A stretch of DNA of 43,726 bases from positions 1 to 43,726 of the IMG/VR virus record IMGVR_UViG_3300035685_000105; one strand, given 5' to 3'. Positions within the stretch are counted from its first letter, which is position 1. The number at the start of each line of letters is the position of its first letter. Source of the DNA: a virus. Taxonomy: Duplodnaviria > Caudoviricetes. This document shows, one piece after another, positions 9,179 through 21,198 of the stretch. Made by a program: the position numbers and the translations under genes. The notes below the pieces were generated by a model. It was given only the letters and a program-made list of their open reading frames with translations. It was not told the origin of the DNA and did not search any database.

Positions 9179-10045
9179 ATGCCTAGCACCCTGCCCCCGC
9201 GCGGCCACTACCGGGCCGACGTGGCCGTCATCACCGCGCGCGTGCCCGATGGCGCCTTCCGCTGCTGGCACCTGATTGCCGCCCACAACTGGCGCGGCGA
9301 ACCCTGCACGCTGACCGACGCCGAGCAGGGCAGCCTGCTCGGCGTGGACGAACGCACCATCCGCCGCTACCACCAGGCGCTGCGTGACGCTGGACTTCTA
9401 GGGAAGGAAAACTTCCCCTCCGGCGAACGCGGCCTCTGGGCGAAGTGGTTGACGGACGCGGATGTCCACGAATCTTATCCGCATGACGTTGATAACTCTG
9501 TGGATAACTCCGCGCCGCCGGACAATATTGTCCTAAATGGCCGGACAAATTTGTCCATCTCGCGGCCTAACGACGGGGGGAGGGGGGGAGAATATATAAC
9601 CCACCCAACCCAAAAGTCGTTGTCGTTAAGGAAAGGGGGTCTGGGGGAAAACCGGACAGAAGCGTCCGCCCCGGACAACGGTGTCCAGCCGCCTGTGGAA
9701 AACTCGAAGGCGGCGCTGGAACTACTCGCCGTCTTCGCGGCGGCGGGCGTCGTGCGGGGAGCCGAGATTATCGCCCGTGCCCGTGCAGAGAGCATTGGCC
9801 CTGACGACCTGCGCGCCCTGTTCGAGTTCCATTGGATGGACACAGAGGGCGAGGAGGTAAGGGACCGCGCGGCACTCGTGGCGTGGCGACTCCTCAATAC
9901 CCCCTTAGCCCTGACAGATGAGCAGCAGCGACGGCTCGACTTATTTGTGGACTTCTGTGGCCGGTGGCCCTCTGAGCCTGCCGGAACAGCCCTGCACAAC
10001 CCGAAAGGAGCACCCGATGCCGAGACTCGTACCAGCCGCGTTTAA
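9179..10045 (+). CDS. phage replication initiator (N-terminal winged HTH)
   Basis: HTH LTDAEQGSLLGVDERTIRRYHQALRDAGLL; central low-complexity linker carrying iterons, as in lambda O-like initiators. Confidence 0.75.
   Translation: MPSTLPPRGHYRADVAVITARVPDGAFRCWHLIAAHNWRGEPCTLTDAEQGSLLGVDERTIRRYHQALRDAGLLGKENFPSGERGLWAKWLTDADVHESYPHDVDNSVDNSAPPDNIVLNGRTNLSISRPNDGGRGGEYITHPTQKSLSLRKGGLGENRTEASAPDNGVQPPVENSKAALELLAVFAAAGVVRGAEIIARARAESIGPDDLRALFEFHWMDTEGEEVRDRAALVAWRLLNTPLALTDEQQRRLDLFVDFCGRWPSEPAGTALHNPKGAPDAETRTSRV
9475..9702. other. probable replication origin inside the initiator gene
   Basis: GGACA-N4-(T/C)GTCC dyads at 9520, 9543, 9654 and 9673; DnaA boxes TGTGGATAA (9499-9507, perfect), TTATCCGCA (9475) and TGTGGAAAA (9694). 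Confidence 0.75.
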
Positions 10046-10784: not shown

Positions 10785-11200
10785 GCAGCAGGGTCCAGTG
10801 GCTCAAGCACGACATCCTCGATGAACTGATAGAAGCGTTCATCGCCGCGACCGGGAAGATGCCCCGCGAGACGACAGTGCTGGAACTCCAACTCTGGTCG
10901 GCCACCCGCGCCATTGAGGAAGCAGGCTCGCTGCGGCCCGACGTGGCGAACCGCCTCACCGTCTGGGCAGTGCTGTTCGTGCTCCGGGAGGAGTTGGGGG
11001 CAGAGGTTGATTTCCGCACCGTCGCGGGCTGGGCGGACGAGGCGCGCCTGGCCGTCGCGGAATGGGCCTTCCTACGCCTCCAGCAACCCGACCTGGTGCA
11101 ACCGCCACCGATGCCGAGGGCGCTGCGGGAGGCCATTGATGCGCTGACGCCTGAGCCACCAAGCGCGGAGATGGAGATGGCCGCATTGGGGGCGTCGTGA
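10781..11200 (+). CDS. hypothetical protein
   Basis: ATGA coupling; GAGG RBS. Confidence 0.65.
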   Translation: MSSRVQWLKHDILDELIEAFIAATGKMPRETTVLELQLWSATRAIEEAGSLRPDVANRLTVWAVLFVLREELGAEVDFRTVAGWADEARLAVAEWAFLRLQQPDLVQPPPMPRALREAIDALTPEPPSAEMEMAALGAS

Positions 11201-11880
11201 GTACCGGCACCCGCTTTCCTGCGGCGCTGGCCTACGAAGCTGCCCGGTCCTTCATCGCCGAGGTGTTTCCCCATGCGGAGCAACTCATGCTGGTGGGCAG
11301 CCTGCGCCGCGTACGCTCCGCTAACCGCGACGAGCGCGGCGACGCCAAAGCCTTCCTCCCGGAGGATACCGTCGGCGACATCGAAATAGTCGCTGAAGCG
11401 CGCTACGTGGCGGTGCCGCATCCGAAGTACCCCATGCTTGAAAAGGTGCTCCAGAACCTCATCTGGAAGCGCCTCGACGAGCTGGTGAATGACCAGGCGA
11501 GCGGCTACCAGATGTGGACGCTGCACCGCGCCTGGGGCGACAAGCTGCGGAAGGTGGCGGTGCCGCTCCCGGACGGCGGCCACATCAAATGTGAGGTCCA
11601 CTGCGTCCCCGCCGGGTGCTACGGCTACGCAGTTGCGCGTTGCACGGGCGACGCGGGCTGGAACCATCTGATGGTCACATCTCGGCGGCAGGGCGGGCTG
11701 CGCCCGGAGCATGTGCGCCTCGAAGACGGGCTGGTCTATGTTCGTGATGTGCTGACGCCTGTCCTCACGGAGCCAGCCTTCTTCTCCACGATGGAGATGC
11801 CCTGGACTCCACCTCACAAACGCACCCGCGAGGCTGCCGAGCGCCTGCACCGCGAACTCAAACTGAAGGTGATGGCATGA
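11197..11880 (+). CDS. polX: minimal family X DNA polymerase-like nucleotidyltransferase
   Basis: VGSLRR, VGDIEIV, TGDAGWN and thumb TEPAFFSTMEMPWTPPHKR; no lyase/fingers or PHP domain. Confidence 0.8.
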   Translation: MSTGTRFPAALAYEAARSFIAEVFPHAEQLMLVGSLRRVRSANRDERGDAKAFLPEDTVGDIEIVAEARYVAVPHPKYPMLEKVLQNLIWKRLDELVNDQASGYQMWTLHRAWGDKLRKVAVPLPDGGHIKCEVHCVPAGCYGYAVARCTGDAGWNHLMVTSRRQGGLRPEHVRLEDGLVYVRDVLTPVLTEPAFFSTMEMPWTPPHKRTREAAERLHRELKLKVMA

Positions 11881-12230
11881 CACTACTCCCGGAGGGTATG
11901 GCCCTGGTGCTGCTCAACGACCGCGCCCGCTTCGACTGGATTGGCAAGGTGGAGCGCGCCTACTACTCCGTCACCCGGCCCGAAGACCCGGTGCGCGCGC
12001 TGCTGGTGGACCACCGTGACTATGGCATGGGACGGCGCATCGAGGCCGTCGTGCGTGCCCGGACAAACACGGCAGTCGCCCCGCGCGGCCTTGTGCCTGC
12101 CGCCGATGTAGACCAACCCTGCCTCTTCATCCACGTTTACGAGGTGATTGGCTCCGTCGCCGAGGCCAACACCACCCTCACGGCGCTCCTGGAGCAGGCT
12201 CCCCGGCGCGCCCCCCAGGAGGTTCCCTGA
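11877..12230 (+). CDS. hypothetical protein
   Basis: ATGA coupling within the early operon. Confidence 0.6.
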   Translation: MTLLPEGMALVLLNDRARFDWIGKVERAYYSVTRPEDPVRALLVDHRDYGMGRRIEAVVRARTNTAVAPRGLVPAADVDQPCLFIHVYEVIGSVAEANTTLTALLEQAPRRAPQEVP

Positions 12231-12544
12231 TGCCCGCCTTACAGCCCACCCACGTCGCGCTCGCGGTGTTGCTGCCACTGCTCGCGGCCCTCGTCGCCTG
12301 GCTGCTGCGCGTCAACCGCGCACTGCCGGAGGTCGTTATCTCCCCGGAGGCTCGCCTCGATACAGAGTACCTGGGCGGCACCCACTACCGGCTGCGCTTC
12401 CTGGATGACCCGGAGTTGGCCGTCCGCCAACCCTTCCGCCTCCACGAGAAGACGCCGCGCCTCATCGTCACGCGGAAGGAACGGCGTGGCCGTGTGATGG
12501 TCTACGACGCTCGCCTGTTCTCGCCCGGCCAGAGGCACCAATGA
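12230..12544 (+). CDS. small protein with an N-terminal TM helix
   Basis: GGAGG RBS; hydrophobic VALAVLLPLLAALVAWLL. Confidence 0.6.
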   Translation: MPALQPTHVALAVLLPLLAALVAWLLRVNRALPEVVISPEARLDTEYLGGTHYRLRFLDDPELAVRQPFRLHEKTPRLIVTRKERRGRVMVYDARLFSPGQRHQ

Positions 12545-13260
12545 GCGCGCTGCCCTGGCGGGCGCTCCTCGCCCGACTTCCCCTCCCGATGCTGGCCCTC
12601 GCCGCCTCCTACGGTGTCTACCACTTTGCCGCCCTGTTCGTGCCGACGTGGGTGGCCGTCGTGCAGGCTGCTGCATTTGAGGTGACTTACATCGGACTTG
12701 CACTTTTGGACGTGCTCGACAAAGCGCAGCGCCGTCGGGCAGTGTCCATATCGGTTGGCGCGGTGTTGGTGAGCGTCATCTACAACAGCCTCGCCGGGTT
12801 CTTCCACCGCAATCCCCAGGTGTTGCAGCAGTTGTCGTTGTGGCAGGAGGGCGTGCTCGCGGTGTTGCACGGCGCGCCGCTCGCGATTGTTGCTTACCTT
12901 GTTGCAGACCTGTTGCTGCACTCCCGGCCTGCAACTGGAGCGGCCAGTGCAACGCCCCCTCCAAGCAGACCCGCCGTGCAAGTTGCGCGTCCGACACCGC
13001 CTGTGCAAGTTGCACCGCCGCCAGCCGCGCCACCCAGAGCGTTGCCTGCAACCGTTGCACAGCCGGTGCAACCTGCACAACTGGACGAGACGACAACAAT
13101 GGTTGTCATCCAGTACAACCAACTCCGCAACTTTGGAAGCGTGGGGCAACTCCATAACCGAAGTAGAGAGTGGGCACGAAAGTTGTACAAGCAAGCAAAA
13201 GAGGTTGCGCCCGAATGGGTTGCACAAATAGAAAGCGAGGCCACGCATGGCACTACTTGA
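12541..13260 (+). CDS. multi-TM membrane protein with Pro-rich linker and C-terminal HTH (DUF2637/Spd-like architecture)
   Basis: About four TM segments in the first ~125 aa; Pro-rich linker; C-terminal NFGSVGQLHNRSREWARKLYKQA is HTH-like. Confidence 0.7.
   Translation: MSALPWRALLARLPLPMLALAASYGVYHFAALFVPTWVAVVQAAAFEVTYIGLALLDVLDKAQRRRAVSISVGAVLVSVIYNSLAGFFHRNPQVLQQLSLWQEGVLAVLHGAPLAIVAYLVADLLLHSRPATGAASATPPPSRPAVQVARPTPPVQVAPPPAAPPRALPATVAQPVQPAQLDETTTMVVIQYNQLRNFGSVGQLHNRSREWARKLYKQAKEVAPEWVAQIESEATHGTT
12822..13223. repeat. intragenic array of GTTGC/GCAAC motifs (17 copies)
   Basis: GTTGC at 12822, 12864, 12889, 12901, 12912, 12982, 13009, 13041, 13054, 13204, 13219; GCAAC at 12931, 12949, 13048, 13068, 13127, 13146. 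Confidence 0.8.
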
Positions 13261-13627
13261 GGCCCGTTTGCTCGCCACGCCGGAGGAGGCGGACTTCTTC
13301 GGCGTGCTGGGCCTGCCCTACCTCGAGCCGCATGAGCGCAGTGTTGAGACGATGGAGCGGCTGTGGACGACCATCGCAAGGTGCGGCGTCTGCGGCAAGG
13401 AGTTGAACCGCGCCGAGCATGTGCCGGAGAGCGAGCGCACGATGGTCACGCTGGCCGCGCCGTTCGTGGCGCTCTGCGATGTGCCCGCGCATAACACGTT
13501 TTCTGACCTGAATTGGAAGGTTCGGCTAGAGTGGGTGGACGAGCAGGCTAGCGAGCAGCCTGACCTACAGGCCGTCGAGGAGATGGGCCTGGAGGCCAAG
13601 CGGCGCTGGGCTGAAGACCACGCCTAA
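13247..13627 (+). CDS. protein with an N-terminal PolX thumb remnant fused to a Zn-finger-like region
   Basis: TPEEADFFGVLGLPYLEPHER is a PolX C-terminal motif; then CGVC...CDVPAH. Confidence 0.6.
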   Translation: MALLEARLLATPEEADFFGVLGLPYLEPHERSVETMERLWTTIARCGVCGKELNRAEHVPESERTMVTLAAPFVALCDVPAHNTFSDLNWKVRLEWVDEQASEQPDLQAVEEMGLEAKRRWAEDHA

Positions 13628-13691: not shown

Positions 13692-14432
13692 TCATCGAGT
13701 TTTAGTGGCTCGATTGGCACCCTTTAGGGAGGCGGCCTCTCGCAACTGGTCAGGGGTCACTTGAGCCCTTCTAAGATCACTCTCCTGAAGGTTAACGCCT
13801 TTTAGCGTGGCTCGCGCAAGGTTGGCACTCCGCAAATCGGCACCTTGCAGGTCAGCGCCCCGCAAATTCGCGTCTTGCAGATCCGCTCCCTGCAACTCCG
13901 CTTCCTTGAGATTGGCACCGTTAAGATCCAAAATCGGCTTATCCCCGCGTAGCAGACCCAGTTCGTGCACGAAGCGAAGTAATTGCCCACGGCGCTTACC
14001 GTCAAGGCGGTCTAATGCCACCAACGTCTGCCCGCGGGCGACGGTACGTGCTTCGCTCCCGTGCGGCGTTTCGCGCAGCTTGTGATCCAATAGCAACCGG
14101 GACAAATCGTCCATGAACTCGTTCAAGATGCTGTCGAGTGAGGTGCTCAGGGCAGACGCGCGTTCGGCTGCACGCGTGGTCTCGTTAATCCTGGTCACCC
14201 CATAGGCTATGACGAGCGGGACAACGAGTAGGTTTAGCCAATCCCAGAGGGTCTTTGGGTTTCCAATAATTTGCTGAGTCTCAGGGTTCCTTAGCCAGCT
14301 GAAACCTGTCCACGGTGCCCAGTTTCCCCTAAACGCCTGGAGCAGGCCAAAGATGAAGATGGCCCAAATGAGGAATACGGCGACTATCCCCCAGAGGAGT
14401 GGGCCAAGATACGGTGCCAATTTTGCGTACAT
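13692..14432 (-). CDS. membrane-anchored pentapeptide-repeat protein (moron)
   Basis: Two TM segments, KTLWDWL motif, A(D/N)LxG repeats; AGGAGG RBS; antisense to the operon; lower GC. Confidence 0.85.
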   Translation of the reverse strand: MYAKLAPYLGPLLWGIVAVFLIWAIFIFGLLQAFRGNWAPWTGFSWLRNPETQQIIGNPKTLWDWLNLLVVPLVIAYGVTRINETTRAAERASALSTSLDSILNEFMDDLSRLLLDHKLRETPHGSEARTVARGQTLVALDRLDGKRRGQLLRFVHELGLLRGDKPILDLNGANLKEAELQGADLQDANLRGADLQGADLRSANLARATLKGVNLQESDLRRAQVTPDQLREAASLKGANRATKTR

Positions 14433-14589: not shown

Positions 14590-16323
14590 ATGCCTGAGCT
14601 TCGTATCGCCGCCGACCTGACGCTGCCCGACTCTGCCGCCACGCAGACCTTTGCCGTCATCGCGCAACGCGGGGTGGGCAAGACCTACACCGCCAAAGTG
14701 GTCGCCGAGGAGATGCTGAAGGTAGGCAGCCACGTCGCCGTGATAGACCCCCTCGACGTGTGGTGGGGTCTGCGCTCCTCAGATGACGGTGAGCACGCGG
14801 GGCTGCCCATCGTCGTCTTCGGTGGCGCGCACGGCGACCTCCCCCTCCACGCCGAGAACGCGGCCACCATTGCCGATATGGTCGTCGAGCAGCACCTCTC
14901 GGCGGTGCTCTCCATCGGCCATCTGCGAAAGAAGGAGCAGCGCCAGTTCGTCGGCACCTTCTGCGAGCGCCTCTACCACCGCAAGGGCGAACCCGCGCTG
15001 CGCTACCCCACCCACGTCTTCATTGACGAGGCCGATATCTTCATCCCGCAGAAGCTGGCGGCGGGCGCGGAGACGAGCCGCGAGGCGGTAGATGACATGG
15101 TGCGCCGGGGCAGGGTGCGCGGGCTGGGCGTCACGCTCATCACCCAGCGCATGGCCGTCGTAGACAAGGACGTATTGACCCAAGCCTCAGTGCTCGTCGT
15201 GCTGCGCGTGGTCGCCTCCCAGGACCGTGCCGCCGTCGAGGACTGGATCAAGGCCAACGCCGAGCTGGAGGACCGGCAGGCGTTCGTGGAATCGCTCTCC
15301 GGGCTGCCGGTGGGCACCGCCTGGATATGGTCGCCGGGCTGGCTCGACCTCTTCAAAAAGGTGAAGATCCGCCGCCTGGAAACCTTCGACTCCTCAGCCA
15401 CGCCAAAGGTCGGAGAGACACCCCTCCAGCCCACAGCGCTCGCCGATGTGGACCTGGAGCGGTTGCGCGCCTTGCTCTCGGAAACCATCCAGAAGGCCGA
15501 GCAGGAAGACCCCCGCGCCCTACGTCGCCGCATCGAGGAGTTGGAGGCGCAACTGGCGAAGGGTGCCCGCGTGGATGTGCGCGAGGTGGAGAAGGTAATT
15601 GAGGTGCGCGTGCCTGTGTTCCAGGCGGAAGATTTGCAGGCGTTCCGGGATGGCATCCAGGAGGTGTTGAAGGTGGCCGCACGGCTGACCGAGGTAGGCG
15701 AGACCTTCGAGGAGAACGTTCAGGCAGCGATTCAGGCCGTTGAGCAGCCGCCCAAGAGTGGGACTCCTCCCCCGCCATCCGCCCCTCCGTCGTCAGTGGT
15801 CGGTCGTCAGTCGTCGGTCGTCAGTCGTCGGTCGTCAGTCGTTGAGGCGCAGGAGCAAACCGCTCTCACCGATGGCGCGCAGGGCCTCCTGAACGTGCTC
15901 GTCGACCGGCACCCGTTGGCGCTTACCCACAACCAGTGGGCGGGGTTGGCGGAGCGGGGCAACAAGTCGAGCAGCCTATACACCCACAAGCGCGAGCTAC
16001 AGCAGGCGGGGCTGGTCGAGGCGCGGAACGGTCTGTACGCACTCACGAGGCAGGCACAGAACCTTTACCAGCATCGCCTCGCCACGAACCGTAACGAGCC
16101 TCTGGTGGAAGTATGGCGGCGCGTGCTCGATGGTGGACCGCGTAAGATGTTCGATGTCCTGGTGGCCGTCAGTGGTGCCTGGGTTGAGCGCGACGAGCTA
16201 GCGCGGAAGAGCGGCTTCAGCCCCACCTCCAGCAGCGTGGGCGTCCACCTGAAGGTACTGCGCGACAATGACCTTGCCGAGACCCAAGGGAAGCGTGTGC
16301 GCCTCAAGCCCGGTATCCTCTAG
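14590..16323 (+). CDS. HerA/FtsK-superfamily ATPase (DUF87-like) with C-terminal winged-helix domains
   Basis: Walker A AQRGVGKT, VIDP, Walker B FIDEAD, Arg finger RRGRVRG, ITQR; two wHTH-like C-terminal segments; GGAGG RBS. Confidence 0.85.
   Translation: MPELRIAADLTLPDSAATQTFAVIAQRGVGKTYTAKVVAEEMLKVGSHVAVIDPLDVWWGLRSSDDGEHAGLPIVVFGGAHGDLPLHAENAATIADMVVEQHLSAVLSIGHLRKKEQRQFVGTFCERLYHRKGEPALRYPTHVFIDEADIFIPQKLAAGAETSREAVDDMVRRGRVRGLGVTLITQRMAVVDKDVLTQASVLVVLRVVASQDRAAVEDWIKANAELEDRQAFVESLSGLPVGTAWIWSPGWLDLFKKVKIRRLETFDSSATPKVGETPLQPTALADVDLERLRALLSETIQKAEQEDPRALRRRIEELEAQLAKGARVDVREVEKVIEVRVPVFQAEDLQAFRDGIQEVLKVAARLTEVGETFEENVQAAIQAVEQPPKSGTPPPPSAPPSSVVGRQSSVVSRRSSVVEAQEQTALTDGAQGLLNVLVDRHPLALTHNQWAGLAERGNKSSSLYTHKRELQQAGLVEARNGLYALTRQAQNLYQHRLATNRNEPLVEVWRRVLDGGPRKMFDVLVAVSGAWVERDELARKSGFSPTSSSVGVHLKVLRDNDLAETQGKRVRLKPGIL
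15789..15842 (+). repeat. heptamer tandem repeat (GTCGTCA/GTCGTCG) in the ATPase linker
   Basis: Seven full units plus a partial one, encoding SSVVGRQSSVVSRRSSVV. Confidence 0.85.
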
Positions 16324-16342: not shown

Positions 16343-16854
16343 GGGCCATGCCGACAGCGATGACATCACATTGCTAACTTCTGCAACTGCTCTACAAAGG
16401 TATAGAGCCAGTACATTAGCCAATAGAACACGGCTGTCACTACGAGACCCAGAAGGAGCCTGAGGCGACGGAATCGAATCGCCTTTATTCTGGCTTGATG
16501 TCGGTCGAGCATCCTCGAAAAGCGCGCCATCAGATTGCCGTACATGAGAAACAGCGAGGCCCAAAAAACGACAAGGGCACCTCGGTCGCCAGATACCCGC
16601 GCTACAAGTAGAAAAGCCCCCAGAAGGGTCAACCACCCGCCGAACTCGAACCATGCAGGCGCATTCCTAATTAGCCAATCATCACTGTGGTCGGCCCAGT
16701 CGTCCAACCGCTGTACCCAGGAGCTTCCTTCATTGCCGCCAAGTGGCTGCTTATCCATTATGCCCTCCCTCCAAAATCAGCGCAGTGCATAATGTACGCA
16801 GGTTGGCTCAAATCGTTGCGAGGGGATGAGACAGGGCCATGCCGACAGCGATGA
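16343..16854 (+). repeat. 21-bp direct repeat flanking a moron gene
   Basis: GGGCCATGCCGACAGCGATGA at 16343-16363 and 16834-16854. Confidence 0.9.
16366..16758 (-). CDS. small three-TM membrane protein (moron)
   Basis: GGAGGGAGGG RBS; three hydrophobic segments; lower GC. Confidence 0.75.
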   Translation of the reverse strand: MDKQPLGGNEGSSWVQRLDDWADHSDDWLIRNAPAWFEFGGWLTLLGAFLLVARVSGDRGALVVFWASLFLMYGNLMARFSRMLDRHQARIKAIRFRRLRLLLGLVVTAVFYWLMYWLYTFVEQLQKLAM

Positions 16855-16900
16855 AGATGCGATGAACAAGAACGCTAGCCCGCACAAAAACACGCGGCTA

Positions 16901-16957
16901 CACAAAAGCAGAAACCCCGCGCCTGTTACCCTCTAGCGCGGGGTTTCTGCTTTTGTG
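16901..16957. terminator. long perfect hairpin, probable bidirectional terminator
   Basis: CACAAAAGCAGAAACCCCGCGC / GCGCGGGGTTTCTGCTTTTGTG; 22-bp stem, 13-nt loop. Confidence 0.75.
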
Positions 16958-16960
16958 GGC

Positions 16961-17027
16961 TTGTCCTAGTTTGTGACAGTGATTCGTCCTAGTATTAGAC
17001 AGAATTTGTCCTAGTTTAAGACAGTGA
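16961..17027. repeat. three tandem 22-23 bp protein-binding-like repeats, (T/C)GTC-N9-GACA
   Basis: GTCCTAGT cores at 16963, 16986 and 17008; copies 1 and 3 are 20/22 identical. Confidence 0.85.
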
Positions 17028-17078
17028 CGCCGGACACGGTATCATCTATACTACCTCTCAACCTGAAAGAGAGGCATC

Positions 17079-17573
17079 GTGAACTTGTTTGACATGTACC
17101 GCCTGTTTCCGACCCATATAGACTGCATAGCCTTTTTGGAGCGGCTTCGCTGGGATGACACACCCGTTTGTCCATATTGCGGCTCAATTAGAACCTCCCG
17201 CGTCTTGAGGGAACAACGCCACCACTGCAACGGCTGCAACACGCCATTTCGCGTTACTGTCGCTACGGTTTTCCACCACACGCATCTCCCTTTGCAAAAA
17301 TGGTTCCTTGCAATTTGGCTTACCTTGAACACGAGGCGAGGTAGGTCACCGAAAGGACTCCCCGCTCGTCAATTAGCAAAAGCTATGGAAATCAACAAGA
17401 ACACAGCGCACTTAGTATCTAAACGTCTAAGGGGCGCAATGGAAGATGTAGAGCAGCGCGAACTTTTACTCCGCATTGGTGACGTGGGCGACTCAGCGTT
17501 AGCAATGGTCACCACTGCCCAAAGTCGGCAGCAACCGCTCTCAACACCCCTTGTACAGCAACAGGAGCATTGA
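17079..17573 (+). CDS. IS1595-family transposase N-terminal Zn-ribbon/HTH, lacking the DDE domain
   Basis: PVCPYCGS..CNGCNTPFRVTVATVFHHTHLPLQKWFLAI..ARQLAKAMEINKNTA; ORF ends before any catalytic domain. Confidence 0.78.
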   Translation: MNLFDMYRLFPTHIDCIAFLERLRWDDTPVCPYCGSIRTSRVLREQRHHCNGCNTPFRVTVATVFHHTHLPLQKWFLAIWLTLNTRRGRSPKGLPARQLAKAMEINKNTAHLVSKRLRGAMEDVEQRELLLRIGDVGDSALAMVTTAQSRQQPLSTPLVQQQEH

Positions 17574-17574
17574 A

Positions 17575-18507
17575 ATGGCAGACCAGATTGTTAATAAGCA
17601 ACTCGTTCGAGCTACGCATGGGTCACCAGATAACCCGCTACGCATTGGAGATGTAGAAATCCCCTGCTATGTACTAGAGGATGGGCGGCGAGTCATACAC
17701 CAGCGTGGTTTGGTTGCGGCACTAGGTATGTCGCGGGGGAGTAGTAGCGATTCAGGCGGTGACCGACTCGCCAAGTTTACGCAAGGCAAAGCGCTGCAAC
17801 CCTACATTTCGGAAGGGCTGCTTAACGCCGCCACGAAGCCAATTAAGTTTCGTACTCCAAAGGGGGCTTTGGCTTATGGCTATGAGGCTACTGTTCTCGC
17901 AGACATTTGCGAGGCGGTCTTGCAGGCACGAGCAGACAAGAGGCTACAAAAACAACAAGAGCACATCGCCCGACAATGCGAAATCCTTGTACGCGCCTTT
18001 GCTCGCGTAGGTATTATCGCATTGGTGGATGAGGCCACTGGTTACCAGTCGGACAGAGCAAGACAAGCCCTAGAAGAAATCCTGCGGAAGTTTATTTCAG
18101 AGGAACTTCTTAAGTGGGCGAAAACGTTTCCAGACGACTTCTATCGAGAATTGTTCAGGCTCAGAGGGATTCAGTATTCCGAGGTGACCAGCAAGCGGCC
18201 TGGCTATATCGGGAGGCTGACTAACGATATAGTATATGAACGACTTGCGCCGGGTGTCCTAGAAGAGTTGAAGCGCCTTACCCCAAAAGACAGCAAGGGC
18301 CGAAGAAAGCACAAGTATTTCCAGCGTCTAACTGAGGACATAGGTCACGAAAAGCTGCGTGAACACCTATCCAATGTCATTACCTTAATGCGAGCATCGC
18401 CAAACTGGCCCACGTTCTACAAGCTTCTGCAAAGGGCGCTGCCGAAATATAACCCCCAACTGAGTCTACCTATACCAGAAATGGGCGATGATGAACAGAT
18501 AGATTGA
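17575..18507 (+). CDS. P63C-domain protein
   Basis: IPCYVLEDGRRV, GIIALVDEATGYQ, KWAKTFPDDFY, TNDIVYERLAPGVL; AGGAG RBS. Confidence 0.88.
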   Translation: MADQIVNKQLVRATHGSPDNPLRIGDVEIPCYVLEDGRRVIHQRGLVAALGMSRGSSSDSGGDRLAKFTQGKALQPYISEGLLNAATKPIKFRTPKGALAYGYEATVLADICEAVLQARADKRLQKQQEHIARQCEILVRAFARVGIIALVDEATGYQSDRARQALEEILRKFISEELLKWAKTFPDDFYRELFRLRGIQYSEVTSKRPGYIGRLTNDIVYERLAPGVLEELKRLTPKDSKGRRKHKYFQRLTEDIGHEKLREHLSNVITLMRASPNWPTFYKLLQRALPKYNPQLSLPIPEMGDDEQID

Positions 18508-18776
18508 GTAAGACCAGAACACCAGTAGCTGGTTTCAATCTACTGGATACCCCGTCCTGGCCTCCGAGGTACGTTGCAATAAGGCGACTTGCACTTAAGG
18601 CAACCTTTGGCCCCTGCCCTTCTTGCGCCTCACCATTGCGCGGCATCCGAACATGGCTGCAATGCTAACACGGCCCCCAAACCCGAACCACAACCTTGAA
18701 GAGCGTCTTGTGCAGCTATATGACAAAACTGTAATCAAGTTGGGCTGCTAAATTGGCACTCGGTAGGCGCGAGTGC

Positions 18777-18805
18777 TTGTTTTTGCTGGCAACTTGTTCT
18801 ATACT
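18777..18805 (+). promoter_or_regulatory. promoter of the zeta-like kinase gene
   Basis: TTGTTT-17-TATACT, about 150 nt upstream of GTG 18955. Confidence 0.55.
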
Positions 18806-18954
18806 ACTAAAAGCAAAACGCCACCATGCCCTCAGAAAGCGGTGGCGTCTTACCCTGTATGTTCGCAAGCCAACAAAGGCCGCGTGCTGTGCGGAACTAT
18901 TGTATGCGACTCAGGGATCGAAGTCAACATCACCAGAACCCCTGAGGTGCGCCA

Positions 18955-19890
18955 GTGAAAGTCAGAGGCGGTAAGAGCAAAGAACTATGGAGTTGGGCTT
19001 CGGCCTTTATTAATATAGTCTTGCCAGCGAGGTATTCGTTCACCCCACCTACAATCAAGCGGAACCCGCAGCTAACTAAGCGCGAAAGGTACATCGAAGG
19101 TGACTTCATAGACTGGATAGAGGAAGATTGGGAACGGGCAGTTCGCGATTACTGCAAGCTACGAGAAAGCGAAAACGGACGAGTGCTGAATCCTGACATC
19201 GCTCGTGAGTTATCTCGGTTTTATAAGCAATCCGACGAAGACCGGGCTCGCTATGCTGTCGCGGTGCATGAGCCTGCTAGTGCCTTGGTAAAAGAAATCT
19301 ATCACCGCCGCCTCCGTAAGCGCTTTGTCAGGAGCCGACTGGTTTTCTTCACTGCTGGCGGTGCAGGCGCTGGAAAGACCACTGCTTTTAATGAAGTAAT
19401 GGGGATTGAGCAGTGGAAGCGATACCACACGGTATATGACAGCACTCTGAGCAGCTTTGAAAGTGCCAGCGTAAAGATCGAGCAAGCCTTGGCTGCCCAT
19501 AAACAGGCTCTGATCCTGTATGTGCATCGCCCAATAGGATTGGCGGTGCAAGGTGTTATAGATCGCGCCCTGGAACGCGGACGGGTTTTGCCCATTGACG
19601 AAGTCGCGAGAGGGCATTATAATGCACAGTGTGCAATATTCGAGATCATTGCACATTATGCAACTTCGGAGTACCGTGAGCGCGTGGCAGTGAGGATTGC
19701 GAATAACAGTAATGGCACCAAAGGTGCTATAATTGATATGACAATCCACGAACTGGAAAAGGCGCGCTATCCAGATCTCGAAACAGTAATGCGCCTAGCT
19801 AGGGGGGCTCTCGAAAATGTTAAAAGAACTCGGAGCAAAGCTGGGGAACCCATTCCAGAGACGCTCTACCGCATTCTCGCTCGAGCATGA
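18955..19890 (+). CDS. zeta-toxin-like P-loop kinase
   Basis: FTAGGAGAGKTT Walker A, VYDSTLS, LYVHRP, RALERGRVLP; N-terminal DIARELS..AVHEPAS motif. Confidence 0.78.
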   Translation: MKVRGGKSKELWSWASAFINIVLPARYSFTPPTIKRNPQLTKRERYIEGDFIDWIEEDWERAVRDYCKLRESENGRVLNPDIARELSRFYKQSDEDRARYAVAVHEPASALVKEIYHRRLRKRFVRSRLVFFTAGGAGAGKTTAFNEVMGIEQWKRYHTVYDSTLSSFESASVKIEQALAAHKQALILYVHRPIGLAVQGVIDRALERGRVLPIDEVARGHYNAQCAIFEIIAHYATSEYRERVAVRIANNSNGTKGAIIDMTIHELEKARYPDLETVMRLARGALENVKRTRSKAGEPIPETLYRILARA

Positions 19891-20082: not shown

Positions 20083-21012
20083 TCAAGCGTCAAATCGAAT
20101 CCCCAGGGCGTCACAAGGCGCGTCCTGTAGGTCGAGGGTGTTGCCCAGGTAGATCTGCGTCGTGTTGATGTTGGAGTGCCCAAGGTTGATCTGGATTTGC
20201 TCCAGCTTGGCCCCGCCCTTCGCCGCGAGTTTGGCATAGGTTCTACGAAGGTCATGTGGTGCCACCTTGATCCCCGTGCGCGCCGAATGCTCCCCGACCA
20301 CGTTCCACAGCGTCTGCGTGCTGGCCTTCGCCCCGGCGACCCTACCGGCTTTGTTGACCGGGCGGAAGAGATAGCCGCTCCGAATCCCCGCCTCCTCCAG
20401 CCACGCATCGAGCAGCGCCTTCGTCCACGCCGCCATCGGCACGTTGCGAATCTTGCTGCCCTTCCCGTCCAGGTCACACACCACCCACCGCCCCTCGCGG
20501 ACCTGCACCTGCTCGATGGTGAGTGTGGCCGCCTCGTCGCGGCGTAGACCGCAGCCGATGAGCAGCCCCAGAATCGCCCGGTCGCGCTTCCCCTTCAGCG
20601 TGGCCGCATCCGGGGCGTTGATGAGTTCCTGAGCCTGCTCTTTCGATAGCCAGTTGCCGAGCCGCTTGCCCGCCTTCTTGACGCCCTTCACGCCCTCGAT
20701 GGCCCGCGCCTGCTCCGAGGAGAGTTCGCCCATCTCTTCGAGCAGCGCCGCCATGAGGCGAATTGCCGAGAGCGCCTGGTTCACCGACTGGCTGCCCGTG
20801 CCTCCGGCGCGCAGCACCTCCTTGTAGCGGCGAACCGTCACCGCATCGAGGCGCTTGTGACCAGCCGCCGCGTACCAGGTGAGGAAGGCGCGGATGTGGC
20901 GGCCATAGGCGCGTTTGGTGTGGCGGCTGCCCACCGCGTCACACACCATCTCGACGAGCCTGCCGGTCGTGTCCTGGGGCTGCTCGATGACGACTAACGC
21001 TGCGGATGTCAT
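20083..21012 (-). CDS. tyrosine recombinase (XerC/D-like)
   Basis: Full catalytic set GLRR, GKG, HDLRR, LGH, TQIY; SAM-like N-terminal domain; start uncertain (ATG 21012 chosen). Confidence 0.93.
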   Translation of the reverse strand: MTSAALVVIEQPQDTTGRLVEMVCDAVGSRHTKRAYGRHIRAFLTWYAAAGHKRLDAVTVRRYKEVLRAGGTGSQSVNQALSAIRLMAALLEEMGELSSEQARAIEGVKGVKKAGKRLGNWLSKEQAQELINAPDAATLKGKRDRAILGLLIGCGLRRDEAATLTIEQVQVREGRWVVCDLDGKGSKIRNVPMAAWTKALLDAWLEEAGIRSGYLFRPVNKAGRVAGAKASTQTLWNVVGEHSARTGIKVAPHDLRRTYAKLAAKGGAKLEQIQINLGHSNINTTQIYLGNTLDLQDAPCDALGIRFDA

Positions 21013-21198
21013 AGGGGATTCCAGGAGATACTGAGCATTATCATTCATCATAGGAATAGTGGTACAACTGCCTATCCAAGAGTGGAGCACCCCCCTTGCA
21101 AAGGCATGTGGCGCTGGCTATACTTGTGGGGTAATCCCCCCTCAAGCCCGCCGCGCGTGACCTTGGCCGGTTCCACACGCGGCGGGCGTCTTTGTGTC

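Follow-up and report, generated by a model that had tools for sequence, protein, structure and literature searches.

A gene of a temperate tailed phage, encoding a protein of 239 amino acids, carries within its own coding sequence a dense array of the word GTTGC and its complement GCAAC; this array is real, and the constraint that maintains it acts on the DNA. We assign a probability of roughly 0.5 to the reading that the gene specifies a self-addressed DNA-membrane tether, working like the SpdB2, SpdA2 and TraB-clt systems of Streptomyces. Comparison of related sequences makes it probable that the predicted HTH tail of the protein binds the word found in its own gene, and there may be about an even chance that tethering of DNA to the membrane is the function under selection.

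The window, i.e., the whole stretch of 43,726 nucleotides analyzed here, is classed as a provirus, and its content of serine integrase, repressor, terminase, portal, capsid and tail genes is that of a temperate tailed phage. The 239-aa gene is located within the early/replication arm of this prophage (Table 1). Upstream of it, an HTH replication-initiator-like gene (9179-10045) contains nine copies of GGACA/TGTCC, several of them paired inversely, an arrangement that resembles iterons inside an initiator gene. The two ORFs that flank the array gene (11197-11880 and 13247-13627) have weak matches to the DNA polymerase beta thumb (E 0.048 and 6.5e-5) and may represent fragments of a PolX-like gene, separated by an inserted block. 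Accessory genes of lower GC (13692-14432 and 16366-19890) encode a membrane pentapeptide-repeat protein, an IS1595-like zinc ribbon, a P63C-domain protein and a Zeta-toxin-like kinase, and beside them lies a tyrosine integrase (20083-21090), present in addition to the serine integrase. Note also that seven copies of GTCGT, six of them with a 7-base period, lie in the HerA gene at 15789-15842, in the linker that directly precedes the C-terminal domain; this tandem run is unique within the window and may be a plain short tandem repeat.

Table 1. Features of the 239-aa gene and of its immediate surroundings in the window.
Feature	Position	Strand	Remarks
104-aa single-TM ORF	12230..12544	+	overlaps start codon of the 239-aa gene at 12541-12544; without array
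Gene for the 239-aa protein	12541..13260	+	predicted four-helix membrane domain, Pro/Ala-rich linker, HTH-like tail
Conserved membrane domain, aa 6-127	12556..12921	+	hallmark of the family; without Pfam, PHROG or PDB match
GTTGC/GCAAC array, n = 17	12822..13223	both	11 on +, 6 on -; spacing irregular
Low-complexity linker, aa 128-182	12922..13086	+	disordered in AlphaFold2 model
Near-palindromic site pair	13003..13015		arm of 16-nt inverted repeat with 13064-13079
Predicted sigma70-region-4-like HTH, aa 183-222	13087..13206	+	no close relative of tail found
HerA/DUF87 ATPase	14590..16323	+	context only; starts 1.3 kb downstream of the 239-aa gene

A sequence-only reading of this DNA had counted 17 copies of GTTGC or GCAAC where about one would occur by chance, and the exact count is indeed 17, the window-wide rate predicting 1.1 per 402 bp. 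Ten of the 17 copies are extended to GTTGCA/TGCAAC, and five of the six strand/frame classes are occupied, in agreement with what that reading had stated on the extended word, the use of both strands and the different codon phases. When one mismatch to GTTGCA is allowed, the gene holds 29 sites, compared with 5.9 expected. The array is the strongest 5-mer and 6-mer cluster of the window (Poisson 6e-15, not corrected for the scan), and its gene ranks first among 30 window ORFs scored alike (11.4 versus at most 6.8). Five of the sites fall in the membrane domain and eight in the linker; the copies are dispersed, have little flanking sequence in common and are separated by gaps of 6-59 bp, among which neither fixed spacing nor helical phasing was detected.

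That the constraint concerns the DNA and not the protein, as had also been proposed, is upheld by three protein-preserving controls, all of which the enrichment survives. Recoding with phage codon usage yields a mean of 3.0 copies (maximum 9), shuffling of synonymous codons within the gene 6.7 (maximum 14) and uniform-codon recoding 4.5 (maximum 13), 17 copies being reached in 0 of 3000 runs of each control; a protein-level cause, such as Val-Ala/Leu-Gln content, is therefore rejected. The AT-ending codons described as rare in neighboring genes are elevated here, GCA accounting for 13 of 40 Ala codons (87 of 910 in 18 other window ORFs) and GTT for 9 of 28 Val codons (51 of 572 in the same ORFs), and GC3 drops from about 0.8 to 0.47-0.63 in the 3' half of the gene. 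Across the whole window, GTTGC/GCAAC is not enriched (121 copies versus 113 +/- 10). A genome-wide uptake or restriction-type motif is rejected, because enrichment does not extend outside the 239-aa gene.

The AlphaFold2 model of the protein, based on a 47-row alignment (pLDDT 77, pTM 0.46), predicts long N-terminal helices at residues 14-30, 36-54, 61-90 and 100-126, followed by the linker and a helical tail. The roughly four transmembrane helices originally assumed thus correspond to four helices in the model, of which a plain hydropathy scan passes only three, and the Pro-rich linker is recovered as a Pro/Ala-rich, disordered segment. For the C-terminal HTH, an hhalign comparison of the tail with sigma70-region-4-like tails of homologs (72%, E 3.5e-5), sigma factors found by the tail profile in the PDB (E 0.003-0.007) and resemblance to HTH folds at TM 0.58-0.70 are in favor, whereas the tail is without match in Pfam; taken together, the sequence and model comparisons weakly point to a divergent sigma70-region-4-like HTH. 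A protein search with the tail alone returned only the 239-aa protein itself, with no relative among five candidates, and a tail-only scan returned two HTH genes, both unrelated. Fold searches gave nothing at E <= 0.001 in the PDB or in BFVD, the best BFVD match (1.4e-3) being unnamed. Neither Pfam nor the AlphaFold2 model contains an ATPase domain for this protein.

The membrane domain defines an unnamed family of 440 proteins at E <= 0.001 (396 clusters at 50% identity), carried by mobile elements and found almost only in genomes of Chloroflexales. Its members share residues 6-127, and the part downstream is swapped between HTH, winged-helix, zinc-finger and other tails. One clade is inverted, with an HTH-like N-terminus (weak Pfam support) and a C-terminal membrane domain, in 27 of the 150 representatives listed; the occurrence of an HTH-like segment at either end of the membrane domain suggests that both ends face the cytoplasm. 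All named genome matches of the family are Chloroflexales. In scans at three ranks, 23 of 167 genomes of this order have matches (at least one, G157/L123, is probably false); for the phylum, 3 of 401 genomes do, each of them a member of Chloroflexales, and for the class 16 of 401, one of which is outside the order list. Since the matches are almost confined to Chloroflexales, the host of the window is likely a member of this order. Chloroflexales have a filamentous habit, and the proposal of a filamentous host is supported to this extent. No relative was found in a single-protein scan of viral contigs, and no significant match to the family in annotated phages (one at E 0.4) or in a plasmid collection. 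We found no description of the family or of its design in the open-access literature, and both are apparently undescribed there. Two members deserve mention on their own account: at L064 (G003:C18:38798-39212) the family gene is split into three frames, by frameshifts or assembly errors, and in P0198 (572 aa) LNP/EPL/EPV recur dozens of times along an extended linker, a pattern to be expected from a word at the DNA level. Judging from linker dipeptides, P0023 would be expected to have a word of TGCA type, and members with SRQAAQQRY tails one of GTCGAC/GTTGAC type.

Neighboring genes were surveyed at 62 loci, including the window, after 17 redundant or broken loci had been set aside. A membrane-anchored FtsK/HerA-like ATPase adjoins the family gene in 11 of them; in the 51 others, among them the window, an ATPase of that family is not in the flank examined, many flanks being short. 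A single-TM winged-helix gene is close by in ten loci, a rolling-circle Rep in four and a small multi-TM gene in several. In each of two larger regions, genes for integrase, ATPase and membrane proteins form a single module, which also includes an M23 peptidase in the first case and primase/helicase in the second. Loci with the ATPase look like a TraB/Spd-type pump. At L043, L011, L012 and L021 a Rep_1 rolling-circle gene adjoins the family gene, in small plasmid-like or ssDNA elements.

The association with an ATPase suggested for the window gene therefore exists elsewhere in the family, but not through the HerA gene of the window, whose product lies downstream as described and yet has no TM segment, is unrelated to the usual ATPase of the family (E 0.089) and is a member of a family that is widespread, with named occurrences in several phyla; this HerA is rejected as a partner because it is not linked to the family in other loci. 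Similarly, the translationally coupled upstream membrane gene is present as a single-TM ORF, but without relative in the flanks of the 61 other loci. More generally, no window ORF between 7000 and 19000, these two included, has a relative in those loci, and neither the usual ATPase nor the small membrane partners were found in the window.

Partner genes also carry arrays with words of their own. In the single-TM winged-helix family, CAGAC is found in L039 and L075, mainly on opposite strands and encoding different amino acids; GAACC/GGAAC is common to the ATPase genes of L078, L097 and L121, and GCTAC arrays occur in partner genes of L063 and L083. Adjacent genes of one element have unlike words, ATGCC versus CGTTC in L089 and GAACA versus GAACC in L088. 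These differences agree better with an address for every gene than with a centromere for every genome, as a single centromere would need less variety. We also would like to point out three further observations. A single-TM HTH-like gene upstream of the family gene in L019 (2421-2906) and L013 has the same GCGCA array as the family gene, in 27 copies; a segment between the primase and helicase genes of L089 (4173-4727) holds 26-28 copies of ACTGCC/CTGCCA and is a candidate element origin; and two neighbors in L096 (5270-5683 and 3810-5189) have their own arrays, of GTAAC (12 copies) and AAACG (15 copies).

Arrays in the homologous genes themselves are built from words such as CCGCA, GCGCA, AAGCG (27 copies, in all six frames), ATCCG, GAACA, ATGCC, CGCCA and TGACA. 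Among 46 complete, non-identical family genes, near-identical sets being still included, 11 reach -log10 p >= 5 against codon-resampled nulls, compared with 6 of 83 flank genes (Mann-Whitney p 0.004); this control comprises at most three genes per locus out of 112 flank genes, and two of its six matches are due to the upstream gene of L013/L019 with its GCGCA array. In 12 of 34 loci (5.2 expected), it is the family gene that contains the strongest cluster. In a later set of 14 loci (one without a complete ORF; L093 and L096 had been examined earlier), 6 of 13 family genes score at least 5 versus 5 of 35 flank ORFs, or 5 of 12 when the probable false match L123 is left out. Given these proportions, arrays are common in the family and not universal. 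The expectation that each homolog has its own over-represented intragenic word thus holds for many members, but 35 of the 46 are without a strong array. The window array is among the strongest of the family, and those of L013, L019, L056 and L077 are plain tandem expansions.

The location of the words bears on autoregulation, the best placed of the alternatives to a tether and in our view an unlikely one. According to this explanation, the protein bound to its own ORF would be a transcription roadblock that caps the production of a potentially toxic, pore-forming membrane protein, tethering being a by-product. It agrees with the finding that words are gene-specific and stop at the ORF boundaries of the homologs, which is true even of the adjacent genes of L089 and L088. 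However, the sites are gathered in the 3' part of the genes, where word density is 32 per kb, compared with about 8 in the part encoding the membrane domain and 2-5 in the flanks (L013 omitted), and the 300 bp upstream of family genes, the best place for an operator, are not enriched (4.0 words per kb versus 3.5-4.8 farther off). Moreover, repression usually needs fewer than the 10-60 weak sites present. The toxicity argument draws on SpdB2, the closest analog, which makes pores (PMC4447253).

The word follows the tail rather than the membrane domain. Among 43 dereplicated genes, those with similar tails tend to have similar motifs (partial r 0.40; 0 of 5000 permutations), and membrane-domain similarity shows no such relation to the motif (0.002). 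When only linker DNA is considered (32 genes, L019 and L056 being excluded and the final 50 codons trimmed off), the motif-tail correlation is 0.30, or 0.235 when controlling for linker similarity (0 of 3000), carried mainly by L009/L010/L024 and L001/L034, most zinc-finger pairs sharing no word. Out of sample, a search of the membrane-domain DNA for the word of the same gene's 3' part gives 71 occurrences versus 30.5 expected (2.3-fold, at synonymous sites), compared with 1.19-fold for unrelated words, and 0 of 20000 label permutations reach the level of the own word; this set consists of the 25 genes scoring at least 4, minus the near-copies L019 and L056 and the truncated L057, i.e., 22 genes. 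CCGCA is common to L009, L010 and L024, which have the same tail type, ATGCC to L060, L042 and the distant L074, again of one tail type, and GAACA is the top word of both L078 and the last-found L105, whose tails are similar. The predicted covariation with the C-terminal domain is borne out to this degree, whereas GCGCA occurs with HTH and zinc-finger tails alike, and L071, the only DNA locus with a tail like that of the window protein, gives a moderate enrichment: its top word, CGCAA, is related to GTTGC, and six GTTGC are found in its 714 nt versus eight in 2873 nt of flank. A word that changes with the tail among relatives makes it likely that the protein binds its own gene. As linker and tail are adjacent, the covariation may also reflect simple co-inheritance of both.

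Co-inheritance is at the heart of the explanation that the arrays are unselected, which we consider rather improbable: slippage or gene conversion would fill a tolerant linker, and the word would travel with the physically linked tail. The four tandem expansions, the majority of family genes without a strong array and the unrelated flank genes that at times score as high can all be read in this way. It accounts poorly for the window copies, dispersed on both strands and in five frames with little common flanking sequence, for the enrichment at synonymous sites of the conserved domain, and for a word such as CAGAC that accompanies one tail type on opposite strands with different amino acids (L039/L075). 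Least probable is that the array is real and selected and not read by the tail of the window protein, being a relic or the target of another reader (a partner since lost, a host factor or a different HTH protein of the phage), as the divergent tail without relatives or Pfam match and the missing partners would allow. Against this, the ORF is intact, its tail aligns with and is predicted to fold like an HTH, the array ranks with the strongest of the family, and the remainder of the prophage shows no enrichment of the word.

In the tether that we favor, the protein would be embedded in the membrane by its predicted four-helix domain and would bind, through its predicted HTH tail, the GTTGC(A) sites of the gene that encodes it, so that the locus would be tethered. 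With many weak sites of 5-6 bases, specificity would come from several anchored copies binding at once, and sites within the ORF would keep lock and key together when tails are swapped. Inheritance might be served by a tether that holds the excised element at the septum or the membrane; alternatively, the tether might assist the passage of this element along the filament by a TraB/Spd-like pump; as the usual ATPase was not found in the window, a stand-alone role in positioning or stability is likelier for this prophage. We know of no account of how mobile DNA is inherited along Chloroflexales filaments. If the proposal is true, one gene encodes a membrane anchor plus its DNA target, and the gene sequence itself reveals the specificity; dozens of tails with their matching words become available, and membrane-linked spreading or positioning of DNA in the manner of Streptomyces would also occur in another filamentous group, unrelated to the first, on its phages and integrative elements. 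Much more tentative is a general "self-addressed cassette," in which linker, tail and array would be swapped among four-TM anchors, single-TM anchors and membrane FtsK-like motors, forming a pump for prophage or integrative-element DNA between the cells of Chloroflexales filaments and obeying a code that relates recognition helix or zinc finger to word.

Among known proteins, the layout is similar to that of the DUF2637 (PF10935) plus HTH proteins of Actinomycetota, which a language model retrieves as look-alikes at 0.84-0.86, a lead only. By HMMER comparison, however, the family is not DUF2637: the PF10935 profile has no match in the window protein at E <= 1, in 23 permuted members with HTH-like N-terminus or in 13 distant members at E <= 2, and is not among the best 25 of 125 Pfam families for 47 members. 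A single protein that bridges a DNA motif and the membrane, as proposed here, positions DNA in the RacA-ram and RocS systems. RicO-ricS, with sites in the origin region, works in the same manner using an amphipathic-helix anchor (bioRxiv 10.64898/2026.03.06.710092). RicO, RocS and RacA are chromosomal and have an N-terminal DNA-binding domain and a C-terminal amphipathic or peripheral anchor, whereas the 239-aa protein is the product of a prophage gene and has a multi-pass N-terminal domain and a C-terminal HTH-like tail.

The Streptomyces systems offer closer functional parallels. SpdB2 of plasmid pSVH1, from a filamentous host, has four TM helices, binds DNA and forms pores (PMC4447253), and the window protein resembles it in its four predicted helices and a DNA-binding-type tail. 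According to the same source, SpdB2 binds DNA non-specifically, has an N-terminal coiled coil and is described without an intragenic array, in contrast to the C-terminal HTH-like tail and array found here; a possible counterpart of the SpdB2 operon, with small membrane genes and an FtsK-like motor, is seen in 11 of the 62 loci and not in the window. SpdA2 of pIJ101 binds sps sites inside its own coding sequence, which synonymous recoding removes, and affects segregational stability (PMC4170104), so that an array inside the gene of its candidate reader has a precedent. SpdA2 is a protein of 135 aa with an SRDD/E motif and two to three copies of a conserved 12-bp palindrome, and it is described without a membrane domain (PMC4170104), whereas family members have 10-60 short, non-palindromic words (17 in the window), which vary from member to member and accompany a membrane domain. 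In the conjugative plasmids of Streptomyces, TraB/TraA-clt combines a membrane-anchored protein, a C-terminal HTH-type domain and element-specific short repeats (PMC3583192), a combination also predicted here; clt is mostly non-coding and read by the motor itself, whereas the 239-aa protein has no ATPase, and the repeats are inside its own ORF on both strands. The 239-aa protein lacks the profile match of DUF2637, the palindromic sites of SpdA, the ATPase domain of TraB and the domain order and anchor of RicO; by analogy, its design appears to work like a fusion of SpdB2 and SpdA2, with element-specific repeats as in TraB-clt and a bridging of DNA and membrane as in RicO.
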